From the NCBI GenBank assembly GCA_000503915.1, contig CP006915.1, forward strand, positions 180,001-212,000: a stretch of 32,000 bases of DNA, given 5' to 3'. Of this stretch, positions 17,918 to 26,300 are shown one piece after another (position 1 is the stretch's first letter; the number at the start of each line of letters is the position of its first letter). A program made the position numbers and the translations under genes. The notes under the pieces were generated by a model. The model saw only the letters and a program-made list of their open reading frames with translations. It searched no databases and was not told where the DNA came from. This DNA is from Candidatus Saccharimonadota bacterium (GTDB taxonomy: Bacteria; Patescibacteriota; Saccharimonadia; Saccharimonadales; Saccharimonadaceae).

Positions 17918-17962
17918 GGCAGCATAGCCCCGCCTGTCTGATCGACAGAACGGGCAGGTCAG
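17918..17962 (+). repeat. tRNA-leader element copy 1: 7-nt acceptor-strand mimic followed by a conserved 38-nt hairpin element
   Basis: GGCAGCA-TAGCCCCGCCTGTCTGATCGACAGAACGGGCAGGTCAG. 37 of 38 positions are identical to 26263-26300. Confidence 0.8.
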
Positions 17963-18061
17963 TTGGAGAGCCTTCAGCGAAAATAATAGCGTAACGCTCT
18001 AACCGACTGGTCAGACTTGTCGAGACCGATACGGTCGCACCTTACACAATCCACCCATTAA

Positions 18062-18138
18062 GGCAGCGTAGCTCAGTTGGTTAGAGCGTAGGACTCATAA
18101 GCCTAAGGTCACTGGTTCAATTCCAGTCGCTGCTACCA
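18062..18138 (+). tRNA. tRNA with CAU anticodon, elongator tRNA-Met-like
   Basis: GGCAGCG-TA-GCTCAGTTGGTTAGAGC-G-TAGGA-CTCATAA-GCCTA-AGGTC-ACTGGTTCAATTCCAGT-CGCTGCT-A-CCA. Resembles E. coli metT in the D and T arms. There is an A31:G39 mismatch. Confidence 0.85.
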
Positions 18139-18144
18139 CGTAAG

Positions 18145-18169
18145 AATCCCACTCCATGTGGGATTTTTT
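18145..18169 (+). terminator. Rho-independent terminator after the tRNA
   Basis: AATCCCAC-tccat-GTGGGATT followed by TTTT. Confidence 0.8.
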
Positions 18170-18193
18170 CGTGGTAATACGGACTGGGACTGA

Positions 18194-18310
18194 CCCAGTG
18201 ACCGCGGCAGCTCCAGCTGACGCATGGTCACTGGGTCGCAAAGCGGAGAAAGGAAACTCGTGCTTGCACGTGTCCCTTTCGGAGCGGAGGAGCGAGCAGA
18301 GCGAGCGATA
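18194..18310 (+). repeat. tRNA-downstream conserved element, copy 1 (stem plus 90-nt core)
   Basis: The 90-nt core 18221-18310 differs at 4 transitions from the reverse complement of 25372-25461. It is preceded by the stem CCCAGTGACC/GGTCACTGGG. Confidence 0.85.
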
Positions 18311-18497
18311 TCCCAGTCGCCTCTACGAAGATATAAAGCTATAAAGCGGTTTTTCTTTTTCGGACTTTTTTCATCTGTTAAGGGTTAGCCCCTGGGATTT
18401 ACCCCTATATCAAAATCGGGTGCAAACATTGATGGCTAGAACTCACTCTCCAAGCACTTACACTCTTGCCTGTGACACTACTTCAAAAGTTATGGTT

Positions 18498-19316
18498 CTA
18501 ACGTGCCGTTTGAGAGCGCCTGTGTTGTTCCAAGTTTTGGAGGATCTCTGCCCTAGACTGGTGAGCCCCGGGTAATCCTACATTTGTTTCAAGAATAGGG
18601 ATGTGTAGATCGATTGACGCCGTCTCGCCATGAGCAAAGTCTGTAATCCAATTTGATATATCTGCGTAGCCATGTGGATTAGTACGCTGGTCTAGCTCCA
18701 TCTGGAAGCTGTAAGTACCAGTGAACACGCCCGTCACGACACTCATCTTTCCATGTAATCCGCCAAGAACAATAGCGGGATATGACACGCTCAGAGCTCC
18801 GGCATTGATGAATACATACAGTCCGTGCTCAAACTTCTTTGGTCTGTAATGCTTATCGAGCAAGATGGTCAACAGATTCTTTGAGCGCACGAAAGTGTGA
18901 TTGTTCATGCATGCAATCATTAAGATGACTTGTCGCGCAATCGCATTAGGCTCAATTTCGTGAAGTGAAACCTGCCAGCTAGCGCCACGAGCCCATTGCA
19001 GCTCAAGTGGAATTACATTTTGAGCCCTTGTTTGACGTATCATTTCAAGGTAGGCCGGTACCGTTTCGCGACCTGTCCGGCTATTGCAATCAGAGCATAG
19101 GTAGTACCCGCCTGTCCCACGCTGAGCATTCTGAAACTCTCGACCTCGAAAATCCCAGGGAACAGTCTCTGCTGTCAACGCATCCAACATGTTGTAGAGA
19201 CGAGTTGGACCGTTTTCACCAGAGCCACGTGGCGGTACGTGCTCGAATGTCAACGACTTCGTGAGACCGCACCTCGTACAAGTGCTTTTCTCCTGGACTA
19301 CTTCGCGATCGGCCAT
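18498..19316 (-). CDS. Hypothetical protein with an HNH / beta-beta-alpha-Me nuclease-like N-terminal motif
   Basis: CTRCG-x8-EHVPPRG ... YYLCSDCNSRTG, a CxxC..EH..CxxCN pattern. Start trimmed to ATG 19316, 5 nt after the upstream stop. Confidence 0.45.
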   Translation of the reverse strand: MADREVVQEKSTCTRCGLTKSLTFEHVPPRGSGENGPTRLYNMLDALTAETVPWDFRGREFQNAQRGTGGYYLCSDCNSRTGRETVPAYLEMIRQTRAQNVIPLELQWARGASWQVSLHEIEPNAIARQVILMIACMNNHTFVRSKNLLTILLDKHYRPKKFEHGLYVFINAGALSVSYPAIVLGGLHGKMSVVTGVFTGTYSFQMELDQRTNPHGYADISNWITDFAHGETASIDLHIPILETNVGLPGAHQSRAEILQNLEQHRRSQTAR

Positions 19317-19321
19317 AGTTG

Positions 19322-19603
19322 TTAGTACTCGGGTAGCGACAAGAGATTGTCTGTCCACTCTTTATTCGCATAGGTGCGTATGTACGGGTCTGAGTTTTTA
19401 GGATGAACAACCCCAACATATACGTAATCGGTTGGGTAGTCTCCCACAATTGCCTTATTTGTTGTCGACCGCTCCAGCCAACCAACCATTTCTGCACGGG
19501 ATGATCGTCCCGTGTCTTGCGTACGAACGTTTCTCCACTTTACCTCAGCGATATGTTCGTGACGCTCGCCTCCAATCATGTGACGTTGATATATTTGGAT
19601 CAT
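19322..19603 (-). CDS. DUF3892-like small protein
   Basis: GGERHEHIAEVKW ... YIRTYANKEWTDNLLSLPEY matches the remembered DUF3892 pattern (HEHI..v.W, dNLL.LP.f). GGGAGG SD is present. Confidence 0.6.
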   Translation of the reverse strand: MIQIYQRHMIGGERHEHIAEVKWRNVRTQDTGRSSRAEMVGWLERSTTNKAIVGDYPTDYVYVGVVHPKNSDPYIRTYANKEWTDNLLSLPEY

Positions 19604-19896
19604 AGAAAATACCTCCCCTATGAAAAAGTTATGTTAGTTCTTTCCCACCCTTTGCATAGGCGCAAATGGTCTCGCAGTATGTGTGACGGCTCCCTTGCTA
19701 ACCGCATCGCTTAAAGCTTAATATTTGGCCTGTTCTAATTATATTCGCATAAGCGTTTTTCCACAATACTGTTGTCTATTTGACGGCCTTGACAGCTGTT
19801 GTGTATATATCTACTGGGACTGTATGAATTGACAAACCGGGGGGCATAATTAGCTATGGACTATGGCCTCATTCGTATGGTAAAGCCTATGAATAA

Positions 19897-19905
19897 TGCT
19901 ATGAT
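19897..19905 (+). promoter_or_regulatory. Extended -10 promoter (TGCTATGAT), 9 nt before ATG 19915
   Basis: TGCTATGAT-aaatcccat-ATG. Confidence 0.5.
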
Positions 19906-25211: not shown

Positions 25212-25371
25212 ATCACGAGTATACTCCTATGGCCATAAAGACACTTCTGCGGCTGGCAGTTGGGGCAAGATTATCGGCAGACAAGCTGCCTCCTCCGCTT
25301 ATTCATTCTGGCAAAAGTAAACTTTTCCAGAATTTCACTGCACTTCGCGACCAGCGACTGAATGGCAGGAT

Positions 25372-25488
25372 TATCGCTCGCTTTGCTCGCTCCTCCGCTT
25401 CGAAAGGGACACGTGCAAGCACGAGTTTCCTTTCTCCGCTTCGCGACCCAGCGACCATGCGCCACTTCATGGCGCGGTCGCAGAACCA
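25372..25488 (-). repeat. tRNA-downstream conserved element, copy 2 (inverted relative to copy 1)
   Basis: Core 25372-25461 matches the reverse complement of 18221-18310 at 86 of 90 positions. It is preceded on the minus strand by the stem GCGACC/GGTCGC. Confidence 0.85.
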
Positions 25489-25540
25489 AACCCAAGCCCA
25501 ACCATGAAATAACGACCACTAAATGGTGATCGTGATTTCA

Positions 25541-25618
25541 TGGTTGCGGGGGCAGGATTTGAACCTGCGACCTCGTGGTTATGAGCCACGCGAGCTGACC
25601 AGACTGCTCCACCCCGCG
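25541..25618 (-). tRNA. Initiator tRNA-fMet (CAU)
   Basis: CGCGGGG-TG-GAGCAGTCTGGTCAGCTC-G-CGTGG-CTCATAA-CCACG-AGGTC-GCAGGTTCAAATCCTGC-CCCCGCA-A-CCA. C1 x A72 mismatch. Very similar to E. coli tRNA-fMet. Confidence 0.9.
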
Positions 25619-25651
25619 ACAAAATGTTATCATGACCTGGCCTATTTCATA

Positions 25652-25714
25652 CTCATAACCACGGTTATGAGCGAACGATACGACATGGAGCTGACCAGAC
25701 TGCTCCACCCCGCG
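25652..25714 (-). pseudogene. tRNA-fMet 5'-half remnant
   Basis: 25688-25714 is an exact 27-nt copy of tRNA positions 1-27. It is followed by a 16-nt filler and CTCATAACC, which here forms the hairpin CTCATAACC-GT-GGTTATGAG. Confidence 0.75.
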
Positions 25715-25742
25715 TTACATCTCCTACTCTAACAGATGTAGC

Positions 25743-26189
25743 TCACTTCTGCAAGCTACGATAGGCGCCACCAAATAGGAAATTAATCCACTGCTGGATA
25801 TTACTCTCACTGACTCGCCGCGGCGTTTCCTCAGCTGTCGCCTCACCGCCAGCCGATTTGGCAGCCACGGAATTTGGCGGCAAGATGAGTACCTTCTCCC
25901 CCGGTAGTATTAAGCCGAGCCGTTCACGAATGGCGAGCTCCTTGTACTCATCGCTCTCGTAGTACTTTTGCTGGTAACGCAATGTGTCTTTCTCCAGTTC
26001 GACAAGTGTTAGCTCACGCTGCTTGTGGTTGAGCTCCTTTTGCAAGTTATAGTTTCGCTCCATCGCCTGCACCGACCCCCACGCCCAACTGGCCGCAATA
26101 AGCAGGGCGATTGCCACCACAACATTATTCATCGTGAAATAGCGATGACGGAAATGGTAGTAGGTTTTACGGAGATTTATGTTTTTCAT
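25743..26189 (-). CDS. Septum formation initiator family protein (FtsB/DivIC-like)
   Basis: N-terminal TM helix, then a coiled coil (LQKELNHKQRELTLVELEKDTLRYQQKYYESDEYKELAIRERLGL). Confidence 0.7.
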   Translation of the reverse strand: MKNINLRKTYYHFRHRYFTMNNVVVAIALLIAASWAWGSVQAMERNYNLQKELNHKQRELTLVELEKDTLRYQQKYYESDEYKELAIRERLGLILPGEKVLILPPNSVAAKSAGGEATAEETPRRVSESNIQQWINFLFGGAYRSLQK

Positions 26190-26212
26190 AGCACGGGTAT
26201 GCGTTTACCTCC

Positions 26213-26232
26213 ATTATAGCAGATGCTATAAT
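26213..26232. promoter_or_regulatory. Back-to-back divergent extended -10 promoters forming a perfect palindrome
   Basis: ATTATAGCA-GA-TGCTATAAT. Reads TGCTATAAT on both strands, toward ftsB-like (minus) and toward the tRNA leader (plus). Confidence 0.6.
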
Positions 26233-26245
26233 TACCCAGTACCAT

Positions 26246-26300
26246 GGGGGTGTAGCCGGGTGTAGCCCCGCCTGTCTGACCGACAGAACGGGCAGGTCAG
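26246..26300 (+). repeat. tRNA-leader element copy 2
   Basis: GGGGGTG-TAGCC(GGGTGTAGCC)CCGCCTGTCTGACCGACAGAACGGGCAGGTCAG. Confidence 0.8.

Follow-up and report, generated by a model that had tools for sequence, protein, structure and literature searches.

A 30-nt palindromic repeat of Saccharibacteria in orphan tRNA fragments, probably a selfish element

Two tRNA(CAU) genes in a 32,000-nt stretch of a Saccharibacteria genome (GenBank contig CP006915.1, positions 180,001 to 212,000; hereafter the window) carry in their 5' leaders the same 38-nt hairpin-forming sequence, preceded in its turn by a few nucleotides that recall the 5' end of the tRNA downstream. The locus raises the question of whether such an element acts on the pre-tRNA or has come to reside beside it for reasons of its own. 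Our analysis favours the second answer: the core of the 38-mer, a 30-nt unit that we call E, is probably a selfish, miniature, palindromic and non-coding repeat dispersed in Saccharibacteria, which is lodged here in orphan tRNA fragments and is not a device of tRNA leaders.

Orphan tRNA fragments in the leaders

The two copies of the 38-mer, TAGCCCCGCCTGTCTGA(T/C)CGACAGAACGGGCAGGTCAG, were found on the + strand at 17925-17962 and 26263-26300 and differ at one base, just as the original prediction had described them; no further copy was detected in the window with up to 3 mismatches (0 expected from 100 shuffles). The 38-mer resolves into TAGC, E and TCAG, with E at 17929-17958 and 26267-26296, and TAGC joined to TCAG gives TAGCTCAG, the universal tRNA box U8-A9-G10-C11-U12-C13-A14-G15. 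The sole difference between the copies falls on element position 14 (C in copy 2, T in copy 1), which covaries with position 21 across the E family, and a covariance model of E recovers these two copies in the window and no more. The features of the leaders, numbered 1 and 3 after their tRNAs, and of the third tRNA(CAU) gene of the window are the following:

17749-17777, + strand: promoter-like site of leader 1, TGGAAA-17-TACAAT with TG (extended -10), a consensus match only
17918-17928, + strand: left part of orphan tRNA1 (GGCAGCATAGC), tRNA positions 1-11, 10/11 identical
17929-17958, + strand: E copy 1 (CCCGCCTGTCTGATCGACAGAACGGGCAGG), 52.9 bits with covariance model R1
17959-17971, + strand: right part of orphan tRNA1 (TCAGTTGGAGAGC), covering positions 12-26 (D-loop and D-stem) less 2 deleted nt
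17994-18009, + strand: tRNA1 D-arm copied in antisense (ACGCTCTAACCGACTG), agreeing at 15/16 with tRNA1 positions 14-29 in reverse complement, z = 5.4
18062-18138, + strand: intact tRNA(CAU) no. 1, by ARAGORN and by Rfam (tRNA, 70 bits)
25541-25618, - strand: initiator-like tRNA(CAU), the third in the window, by ARAGORN and Rfam
25688-25714, - strand: exact 27-nt orphan of the 5' end of the initiator-like tRNA, without E, 69 nt upstream of that tRNA
26204-26232, + strand: promoter-like site of leader 3, TTTACC-17-TATAAT with TG (extended -10), a consensus match only
26246-26266, + strand: left part of orphan tRNA3 (GGGGGTGTAGC(C)), containing a tandem duplication of the 10-nt unit GGGTGTAGCC
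26267-26296, + strand: E copy 2 (CCCGCCTGTCTGACCGACAGAACGGGCAGG), 53.3 bits with covariance model R1
26297-26338, + strand: right part of orphan tRNA3 (TCAGCGGATAGA...) and spacer to the tRNA, 10/12 to tRNA3 positions 12-23
26339-26414, + strand: intact tRNA(CAU) no. 3, by ARAGORN and Rfam

When E is excised in silico (17929-17958 and 26267-26296) both leaders match the 5' part of their own downstream tRNA. Leader 1 is identical to tRNA1 positions 1-26 at 24 of 26 sites (GGCAGCATAGCTCAGTTGG--AGAGC in the leader, GGCAGCGTAGCTCAGTTGGTTAGAGC in the tRNA) and leader 3 aligns with the 5' part of tRNA3; none of 1000 shuffles did as well in either case, the matches being specific, in each leader, to its own tRNA. 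Each E-bearing leader contains an orphan, a partial and by now decayed duplication of roughly the opening 25 nt of that tRNA, in which E stands between C11 and U12. The flanks had indeed been recognised beforehand as a tRNA 5' fragment (acceptor strand, U8-A9 and start of the D-stem), but the D-arm has not been replaced by the hairpin as was then supposed: the 30-nt unit has entered between C11 and U12, and past it the D-loop resumes (copy 1, TCAGTTGGAGAGC; copy 2, TCAGCGGATAGA), continuing in orphan tRNA3 as a decayed stretch resembling an anticodon arm. The suggestion that the element is a scar of insertions into tRNA genes came close, and has to be amended to an insertion of E into the D-stem of an orphan fragment.

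The 7-mers that match the acceptor strand are the beginnings of these orphan fragments, and their resemblance to the tRNA is one of common descent by partial duplication, not of mimicry. GGCAGCA (17918-17924) lies directly before copy 1 and agrees with GGCAGCG of tRNA1 at 6 of 7 positions, as had been claimed. The corresponding GGGGGTG of leader 3 does exist but 10 nt further upstream than thought, at 26246-26252, and it is CCGGGTG (26256-26262) that directly precedes copy 2. This displacement stems from the tandem duplication of GGGTGTAGCC (26248-57 and 26258-67), itself correctly noticed before; as the duplicated unit contains the first C of E, the duplication is later than the insertion of E. 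The promoters announced at the starts of both leaders were also located, as the consensus matches listed above. The site of leader 3 lies 13 nt 5' of the orphan fragment, with identical spacing in the orthologous locus L125 (L numbers designate the loci used for comparison), and the orphans probably keep what was the original tRNA promoter.

Partial duplication is not confined to the leaders that hold E. The 27-nt orphan upstream of the initiator-like tRNA bears no E and is absent at the orthologous locus L125, which indicates that 5' partial duplication is a process separate from E, and recent at that tRNA. Following this orphan, the block at 25652-25714 on the - strand contains CTCATAACC-GT-GGTTATGAG (25652-25671), a perfect palindrome made up of the anticodon-loop sequence of the initiator-like tRNA and its complement, and the entire block, of about 100 nt, is missing in L125. 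In leader 1, the antisense copy of the D-arm (17994-18009) is the counterpart, in a long inverted repeat, of the orphan as well as of the real D-arm of tRNA1; the leader of a tRNA-Arg gene in L114 shows the same layout, with the common motif GAGCCTTCAGCsAAAATAATmGCG. Between the promoter-like site and the orphan of leader 1 there are also some 140 hairpin-rich nt (17780-17917; z = -4.65 for the fold of the whole leader), for which neither an Rfam match nor a similar sequence in the other Saccharibacteria loci was found. In L003 (3400-3662) at least three tandem 74-nt units reach the contig end, which cuts the third; each consists of an orphan tRNA 5' fragment (GCCGCCTTAGC) with E, and the sequence between the E copies is identical. 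A derivation of E itself from the antisense D-arm and anticodon stem of tRNA3 was considered and discarded, as the 17-nt alignment in question has one mismatch and one gap and its z of 3.4 was exceeded by the best shuffle.

E as a dispersed palindrome

In contexts other than tRNA, flank comparison and blastn with the leaders set the limits of E at exactly 30 nt, an imperfect palindrome with the consensus CCCGCCTGTCTGnnCGACAGrACGGGCAGG. Its core was retrieved by a pattern scan of genome contigs from at least 8 loci in 7 Saccharibacteria metagenome-assembled genomes among the matches listed, the window species' own genome not being one of them; the pattern used is self-complementary and loose, and it collected many G+C-rich chance hairpins besides. 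Scanning by pattern also yielded 27 metagenome contigs with the core and 0 matches in viral contigs, on which ground a phage origin was dismissed. Over 276 kb of Saccharibacteria loci the covariance model counts 46 copies, decayed ones included, a density biased upward because these loci had been chosen for carrying E.

These copies occupy about 25 distinct contexts, in either orientation. Many lie in orphan or pseudo-tRNA fragments beside intact tRNAs of like identity (Met, Trp, Arg, Gly, Ile, Val), others within further palindromes (type TGTCATyCTsA...TsAGrATGACA), whose loops they occupy, and others in the 5' regions of ordinary genes. Protein-coding sequence is also invaded: in L134 the release factor 1 (RF1) gene has acquired a clean in-frame insert of 10 residues, PARSVEQTGG, relative to Thermus thermophilus RF1 (PDB 4v4r_AY), and L143 carries a slightly mutated E at the matching position. 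Further copies were found in an open reading frame (ORF) for a pseudouridine synthase and in the leader peptide of a pilin-like protein, and the copies in the RF1, pseudouridine synthase and pilin ORFs are all in phase 0; the pseudouridine synthase copy leaves no clean gap against solved structures, RF1 being the sole clear in-frame example. At transcribed sites approximately half of the copies are sense and half antisense, including copies antisense to the tRNA in L062, L129, L136, L087, L131, L150 and L029.

Comparison of orthologous loci reveals that the sites of E are polymorphic in the manner of insertions. Two adjacent sites are filled or empty in differing combinations in L144, L146, L147 and L132; L130 and L131 have homologous flanks with E at one position in opposite orientations; and the orthologous copy in L129 has decayed. 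The spacers of three tRNA-Ile regions were too rearranged for their alignment to yield a clean empty site. An asymmetric AGC^T target model, devised for the two insertion positions, was contradicted by L150 and L152.

The palindromes that harbour E in their loops constitute a second repeat family resembling terminal inverted repeats (L127 2560-3010; L123, L135, L139). A pair of them flanks an ORF for a GIY-YIG nuclease in L127 in the fashion of a small transposon, solo copies elsewhere hold E, and a search of the window for such palindromes detected none.

The secondary structure of E was assessed on an alignment of 22 distinct copies. The fold originally proposed, GCCC(cgc)CTGTC-loop-GACAG(aac)GGGC, corresponds to element pairs 1-3/24-26 and 6-10/16-20 and is possible, with 94% of positions paired across the distinct copies, but it has a single compensatory pair, 9-17 (T-A to A-T in L029, the same change being seen in L159). 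An alternative hairpin of 11 bp, which joins positions 5-15 to 20-30 around a GACA loop (92.5% paired), is better supported by covariation: at pairs 13-22, 14-21 and 15-20 there are 19 double-change cells against 8.7 +/- 2.4 in shuffled alignments, and 0 of 500 shuffles scored as high. This hairpin dominates the predicted RNA folds of common variants (-17 to -20 kcal/mol), its tip being weakened in both window copies. It includes two conserved T.G pairs, of which 11-24 is present without exception in the 22 distinct copies and 9-26 in 20 of them; these pairs confine the 11-bp fold to one strand. A fold on one strand, combined with roughly equal numbers of sense and antisense copies, would fit a single-stranded DNA intermediate better than a function in RNA.

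These traits place E close to several families of miniature repeats. Like the repetitive extragenic palindromic elements (REP) and their REPIN forms, E is an imperfect palindrome of 20-40 nt in many dispersed copies, with a strand-asymmetric hairpin and no target duplication. REP elements have occasional intragenic copies, among other places in pseudouridine synthase genes (PMC3733652), and so has E, likewise with a copy in a pseudouridine synthase ORF. They carry a GTAG or CGTC end tag (PMC3733652), whereas E ends in CCCG.../...CAGG without any tag; the GTAG before some copies is tRNA G7-U8-A9-G10 and is absent in non-tRNA contexts. In addition, no gene for a REP-associated tyrosine transposase (RAYT, IS200/IS605-like Y1) was seen in the window (Pfam, 10 ORFs), the density of E is modest (2 copies in the 32-kb window), and most E copies belong to tRNA-derived fragments, to loops within other palindromes or to ORFs, unlike REPs, which are predominantly extragenic and downstream of ORFs. 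Among the Rickettsia palindromic elements (RPE), RPE-1 interrupts a pseudouridine synthase gene, a case cited in PMC3733652. Insertion in frame within ORFs is shared by E, RF1 having gained exactly 10 residues. RPEs measure roughly 100-150 bp, are CGTC-tagged and belong to another phylum; E, with 30 nt or 10 codons, differs from them in size and sequence family. The small dispersed repeats (SDR) of cyanobacteria, treated by Elhai and colleagues in 2008, are reportedly mobile-looking palindromes of a few tens of nt nested in repeats and genes. Their sequences and hosts are unlike those of E, the likeness is a lead rather than a test, and we know of no association of SDRs with tRNA fragments or GIY-YIG genes. 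E behaves like the miniature palindromic mobile repeats of the REP and RPE kind, albeit without the end tag and extragenic location of the former and the size of the latter, and it is apparently undescribed: our literature searches returned no description of it.

We propose that E would spread as a selfish element by means of a single-stranded DNA hairpin recognised by an enzyme acting in trans, a mode suggested by the fold confined to one strand, with its two conserved T.G pairs, and by the even distribution of orientations relative to transcription. It would favour G-Y^T-C sites, above all the tRNA box TAGC^TCAG, and its copies would persist only where that box is dispensable, that is, in orphan fragments and never in intact tRNAs. 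The orphans would arise by tandem partial duplications at tRNA genes, which in relatives seem to accompany small GIY-YIG genes inserted between orphan and tRNA. Any such gene beside the three tRNAs of the window would have been lost or never present, and E itself most likely travels here as a passenger, transcribed as part of the leader and discarded together with it.

GIY-YIG cassettes and the competing explanations

In relatives, a small ORF between the E-bearing orphan and the intact tRNA encodes a GIY-YIG nuclease of 80-90 residues (PF01541, E-value about 1e-15). Genes of this kind (80-118 residues) stand directly upstream of tRNAs in L130 (2225-2560), L131, L029, L148, L137 and L150-L160, and in most of these cassettes the stop codon of the ORF is the tRNA's own U8-A9-G10, the exceptions being L152, L153/L154 and L157/L158. 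Further cassettes were fetched by GIY-YIG protein similarity alone, with no DNA pattern. The tRNA-Trp cassettes run in the order promoter, orphan 5' piece of tRNA-Trp, E-family hairpin, rest of the D-loop, GIY-YIG ORF and intact tRNA-Trp, the hairpin lying at D-stem positions 9-12 in either orientation; all the protein-fetched loci share this layout except L161, which concerns another tRNA. The hairpin was present in 12 of 12 distinct tRNA-Trp cassettes, three of them found by DNA pattern. The palindrome itself may vary. The tRNA-Arg(TCG) cassette of L148 has a standard E at GC^TC of the orphan; in L137 (about 1010-1110) a pseudo-tRNA-Glu upstream of the GIY-YIG ORF has a different 36-nt palindrome at D-stem 11/12, the place taken by E in other orphans; the tRNA-Trp cassette of L157 has in the D-stem an E-like variant with a different interior palindrome; and in L161 a different palindrome sits in the acceptor stem of the orphan.

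The best analogue for a possible origin of the orphan 5' duplicates is SegB of phage T4, a GIY-YIG homing endonuclease encoded in a tRNA cluster, which cuts the tRNA gene region with 2-nt 3' overhangs and reportedly drives segmental amplification (PMC2330249, PMC13096335). The Saccharibacteria cassettes likewise place a small GIY-YIG gene among tRNA genes; they differ in being chromosomal, in the overlap of the ORF with the tRNA 5' end and in the hairpin insert held by the orphan, and the window differs further in having the orphan and E with no nuclease cassette. By this analogy the window orphans may be relics of GIY-YIG cassettes, and a link between E and the nucleases is possible.

Several results weigh against an independent selfish element. 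No target-site duplication accompanies E: RF1 gains exactly 10 codons, and TAGC|E|TCAG without E is TAGCTCAG. No transposase or other mobilising enzyme was identified for it, and no GIY-YIG ORF was found in the window. The collection scans demanded near-exact matches, and the apparent uniformity of E is in part a product of ascertainment. The constant presence of the hairpin in the 12 tRNA-Trp cassettes suggests that it may be a selected part of the cassette rather than an independent parasite. Lastly, the second window locus (W2) is orthologous to L125 throughout a DivIC homolog, promoter, orphan, E, tRNA(CAU), 263-residue protein and ABC transporter, the proteins being 62-87% identical, and between the two E is identical at 27/30 positions, compared with 58/76 for the tRNA, 5/12 for the D-loop piece of the orphan and 14/30 for the spacer. 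On these identities E is not drifting neutrally in place, and its conservation above tRNA and spacer fits a neutral passenger poorly. Such conservation would call for renewed insertion at a hot spot, for homogenisation or for selection acting on the hairpin; that hot-spot insertion can recur follows from the opposite orientations in L130 and L131.

The same cassettes lend themselves to another explanation, which we regard as possible but unlikely, namely that selection maintains the hairpin as a component of a GIY-YIG nuclease/tRNA cassette, in which case it is no free-living parasite. The nuclease would cut the D-stem, and E or another palindrome at the cut would render the orphan immune, or a hairpin in the 5' untranslated region would control the nuclease gene; E elsewhere would be spill-over of nuclease activity, and the window copies relics of nuclease-less cassettes. 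Loci fetched by protein homology do share one layout of orphan and E hairpin, and the insertion points TA^GC, TAG^C and GC^TC span a 2-nt window, reminiscent of the 2-nt 3' overhangs left by T4 SegB (PMC2330249). Other palindromes occur in orphans as well (D-stem in L137 and L157, acceptor stem in L161), E is nested in palindromes of the kind that flanks the GIY-YIG ORF of L127, and it outconserves the tRNA at the W2/L125 ortholog. Set against this, E is also found far from any GIY-YIG gene or tRNA, in the RF1, pseudouridine synthase and pilin genes and at the L126-type locus, and the window has no GIY-YIG ORF; the adjoining intact tRNA keeps an uninterrupted D-stem, which makes simple target immunity incomplete; and both orientations are tolerated, contrary to a sequence-specific role in RNA. 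A related and improbable proposal is that E is a working partner of the small GIY-YIG nucleases, inserted at their cuts. The nuclease would make a 2-nt staggered cut in the D-stem (TA^GC^TC) and at similar G-Y^T-C sites where E is then inserted, and E would be mobilised by the nuclease, or be retained for conferring immunity on the orphan target and modulating expression of the nuclease.

That E and the preceding copy of the acceptor strand form a leader module modulating pre-tRNA folding or RNase P processing, the functional role first suggested for the element, now seems very improbable. Both window copies are sense, 3' of promoter-like sites and 5' of tRNAs, the minimum-free-energy fold of leader 3 pairs the GGGGG of the orphan with the 3' acceptor strand of the tRNA, and the L125 ortholog retains orphan and E. 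That fold, however, is no better than those of shuffled sequences (z = -0.98); E lies in protein genes, inside palindromes and in other non-tRNA contexts, among them sites upstream of ordinary genes, with no tRNA-like flank, the kind of finding that had been named in advance as refuting the idea; it is antisense to the tRNA at seven loci; and the third tRNA of the window has an orphan without E. Nor does the 7-mer co-vary with the acceptor stem, as had been anticipated: the orphan reads GGGGGTG in both the window and L125, the real stems being GGGGCTG and GGGGGCG, respectively. An 8.3-kb integrated island bounded by the 38-mers as attL/attR-type direct repeats can hardly be entertained. They are direct repeats 8338 nt apart adjoining tRNA genes, but no integrase or recombinase was found between them, the interval holds the DivIC-like cell-division gene that is syntenic in L125, and the 30-mer is single at many unrelated loci; tRNA-integrating elements, moreover, duplicate 3' and not 5' parts of tRNAs.

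Other identities were rejected outright. A tRNA intron, either group I or of the bulge-helix-bulge type, is incompatible with ARAGORN finding no tRNA across any of 38 E junctions after excision; an intact uninterrupted tRNA lies near 17 of these 38 junctions, at 16 loci, which are all the tRNA-associated ones except L003 and L029. A motif like a DNA uptake sequence was discounted as a search of the window that allowed up to 1 mismatch found neither arm of the hairpin apart from the two full copies. Rfam searches at gathering score of the window, together with 13 E-bearing loci, returned tRNAs only, and leader 1 gave nothing at an E-value of up to 10. E is followed by TCAG... with no T-run and is not called by the terminator scan, which discards an intrinsic terminator, and a miniature inverted-repeat transposable element with terminal inverted repeats was set aside as no target-site duplication was seen at the E copies.

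The window contains other repeats of its own. A 93-nt inverted repeat, 95% complementary, has its arms at 18218-18310 and 25372-25464, about 80 nt downstream of tRNA1 (+ strand) and of the initiator-like tRNA (- strand), and encloses about 7 kb that could invert; it had no match in the other Saccharibacteria loci compared. Within the segment that it bounds, an ORF of 286 residues (18498-19358, - strand), which has two CxxC motifs and matches no Pfam family, adjoins a DUF3892 ORF (19322-19603). At 800-3150 (- strand) there is a tandem array of four to five paralogous ORFs (167-194 residues each), whose units share 60-75% identity at the DNA level.

Meaning for Saccharibacteria and their annotation

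For genome assembly, repeats of the E type break contigs, as illustrated by the near-identical public contig DPRQ01000018.1 (GCA_003537595.1, L002), which begins at window position 26256, 7 nt 5' of the second 38-mer and 11 nt 5' of E. The same contig lacks window positions 24835-25068 (234 nt, inside a gene for a major facilitator superfamily transporter) and 25248-25383 (136 nt, in a region of repeats spaced by 100 nt). The lesson for annotation is that hairpins conserved in tRNA leaders of these reduced genomes should not be taken for regulatory RNAs, since they can be selfish DNA residing in remnants of genes.

Few elements that show insertion-type polymorphism are as small as E, which RF1 tolerates as an insert of 10 residues and which has a marked preference for the universal D-stem box of tRNAs. 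If it were the working partner of the GIY-YIG nucleases, the pair would represent a system of nuclease and mini-element not described before, which colonises tRNA genes through duplication of their 5' ends and occasionally adds 10 codons to essential proteins. In Saccharibacteria, members of the candidate phyla radiation, tRNA genes appear to be hot spots for the insertion of GIY-YIG genes under the tRNA promoter, an event that leaves orphan 5' fragments behind, and a mechanistic link between nuclease and hairpin, if true, would give nuclease genes a novel route of spread.

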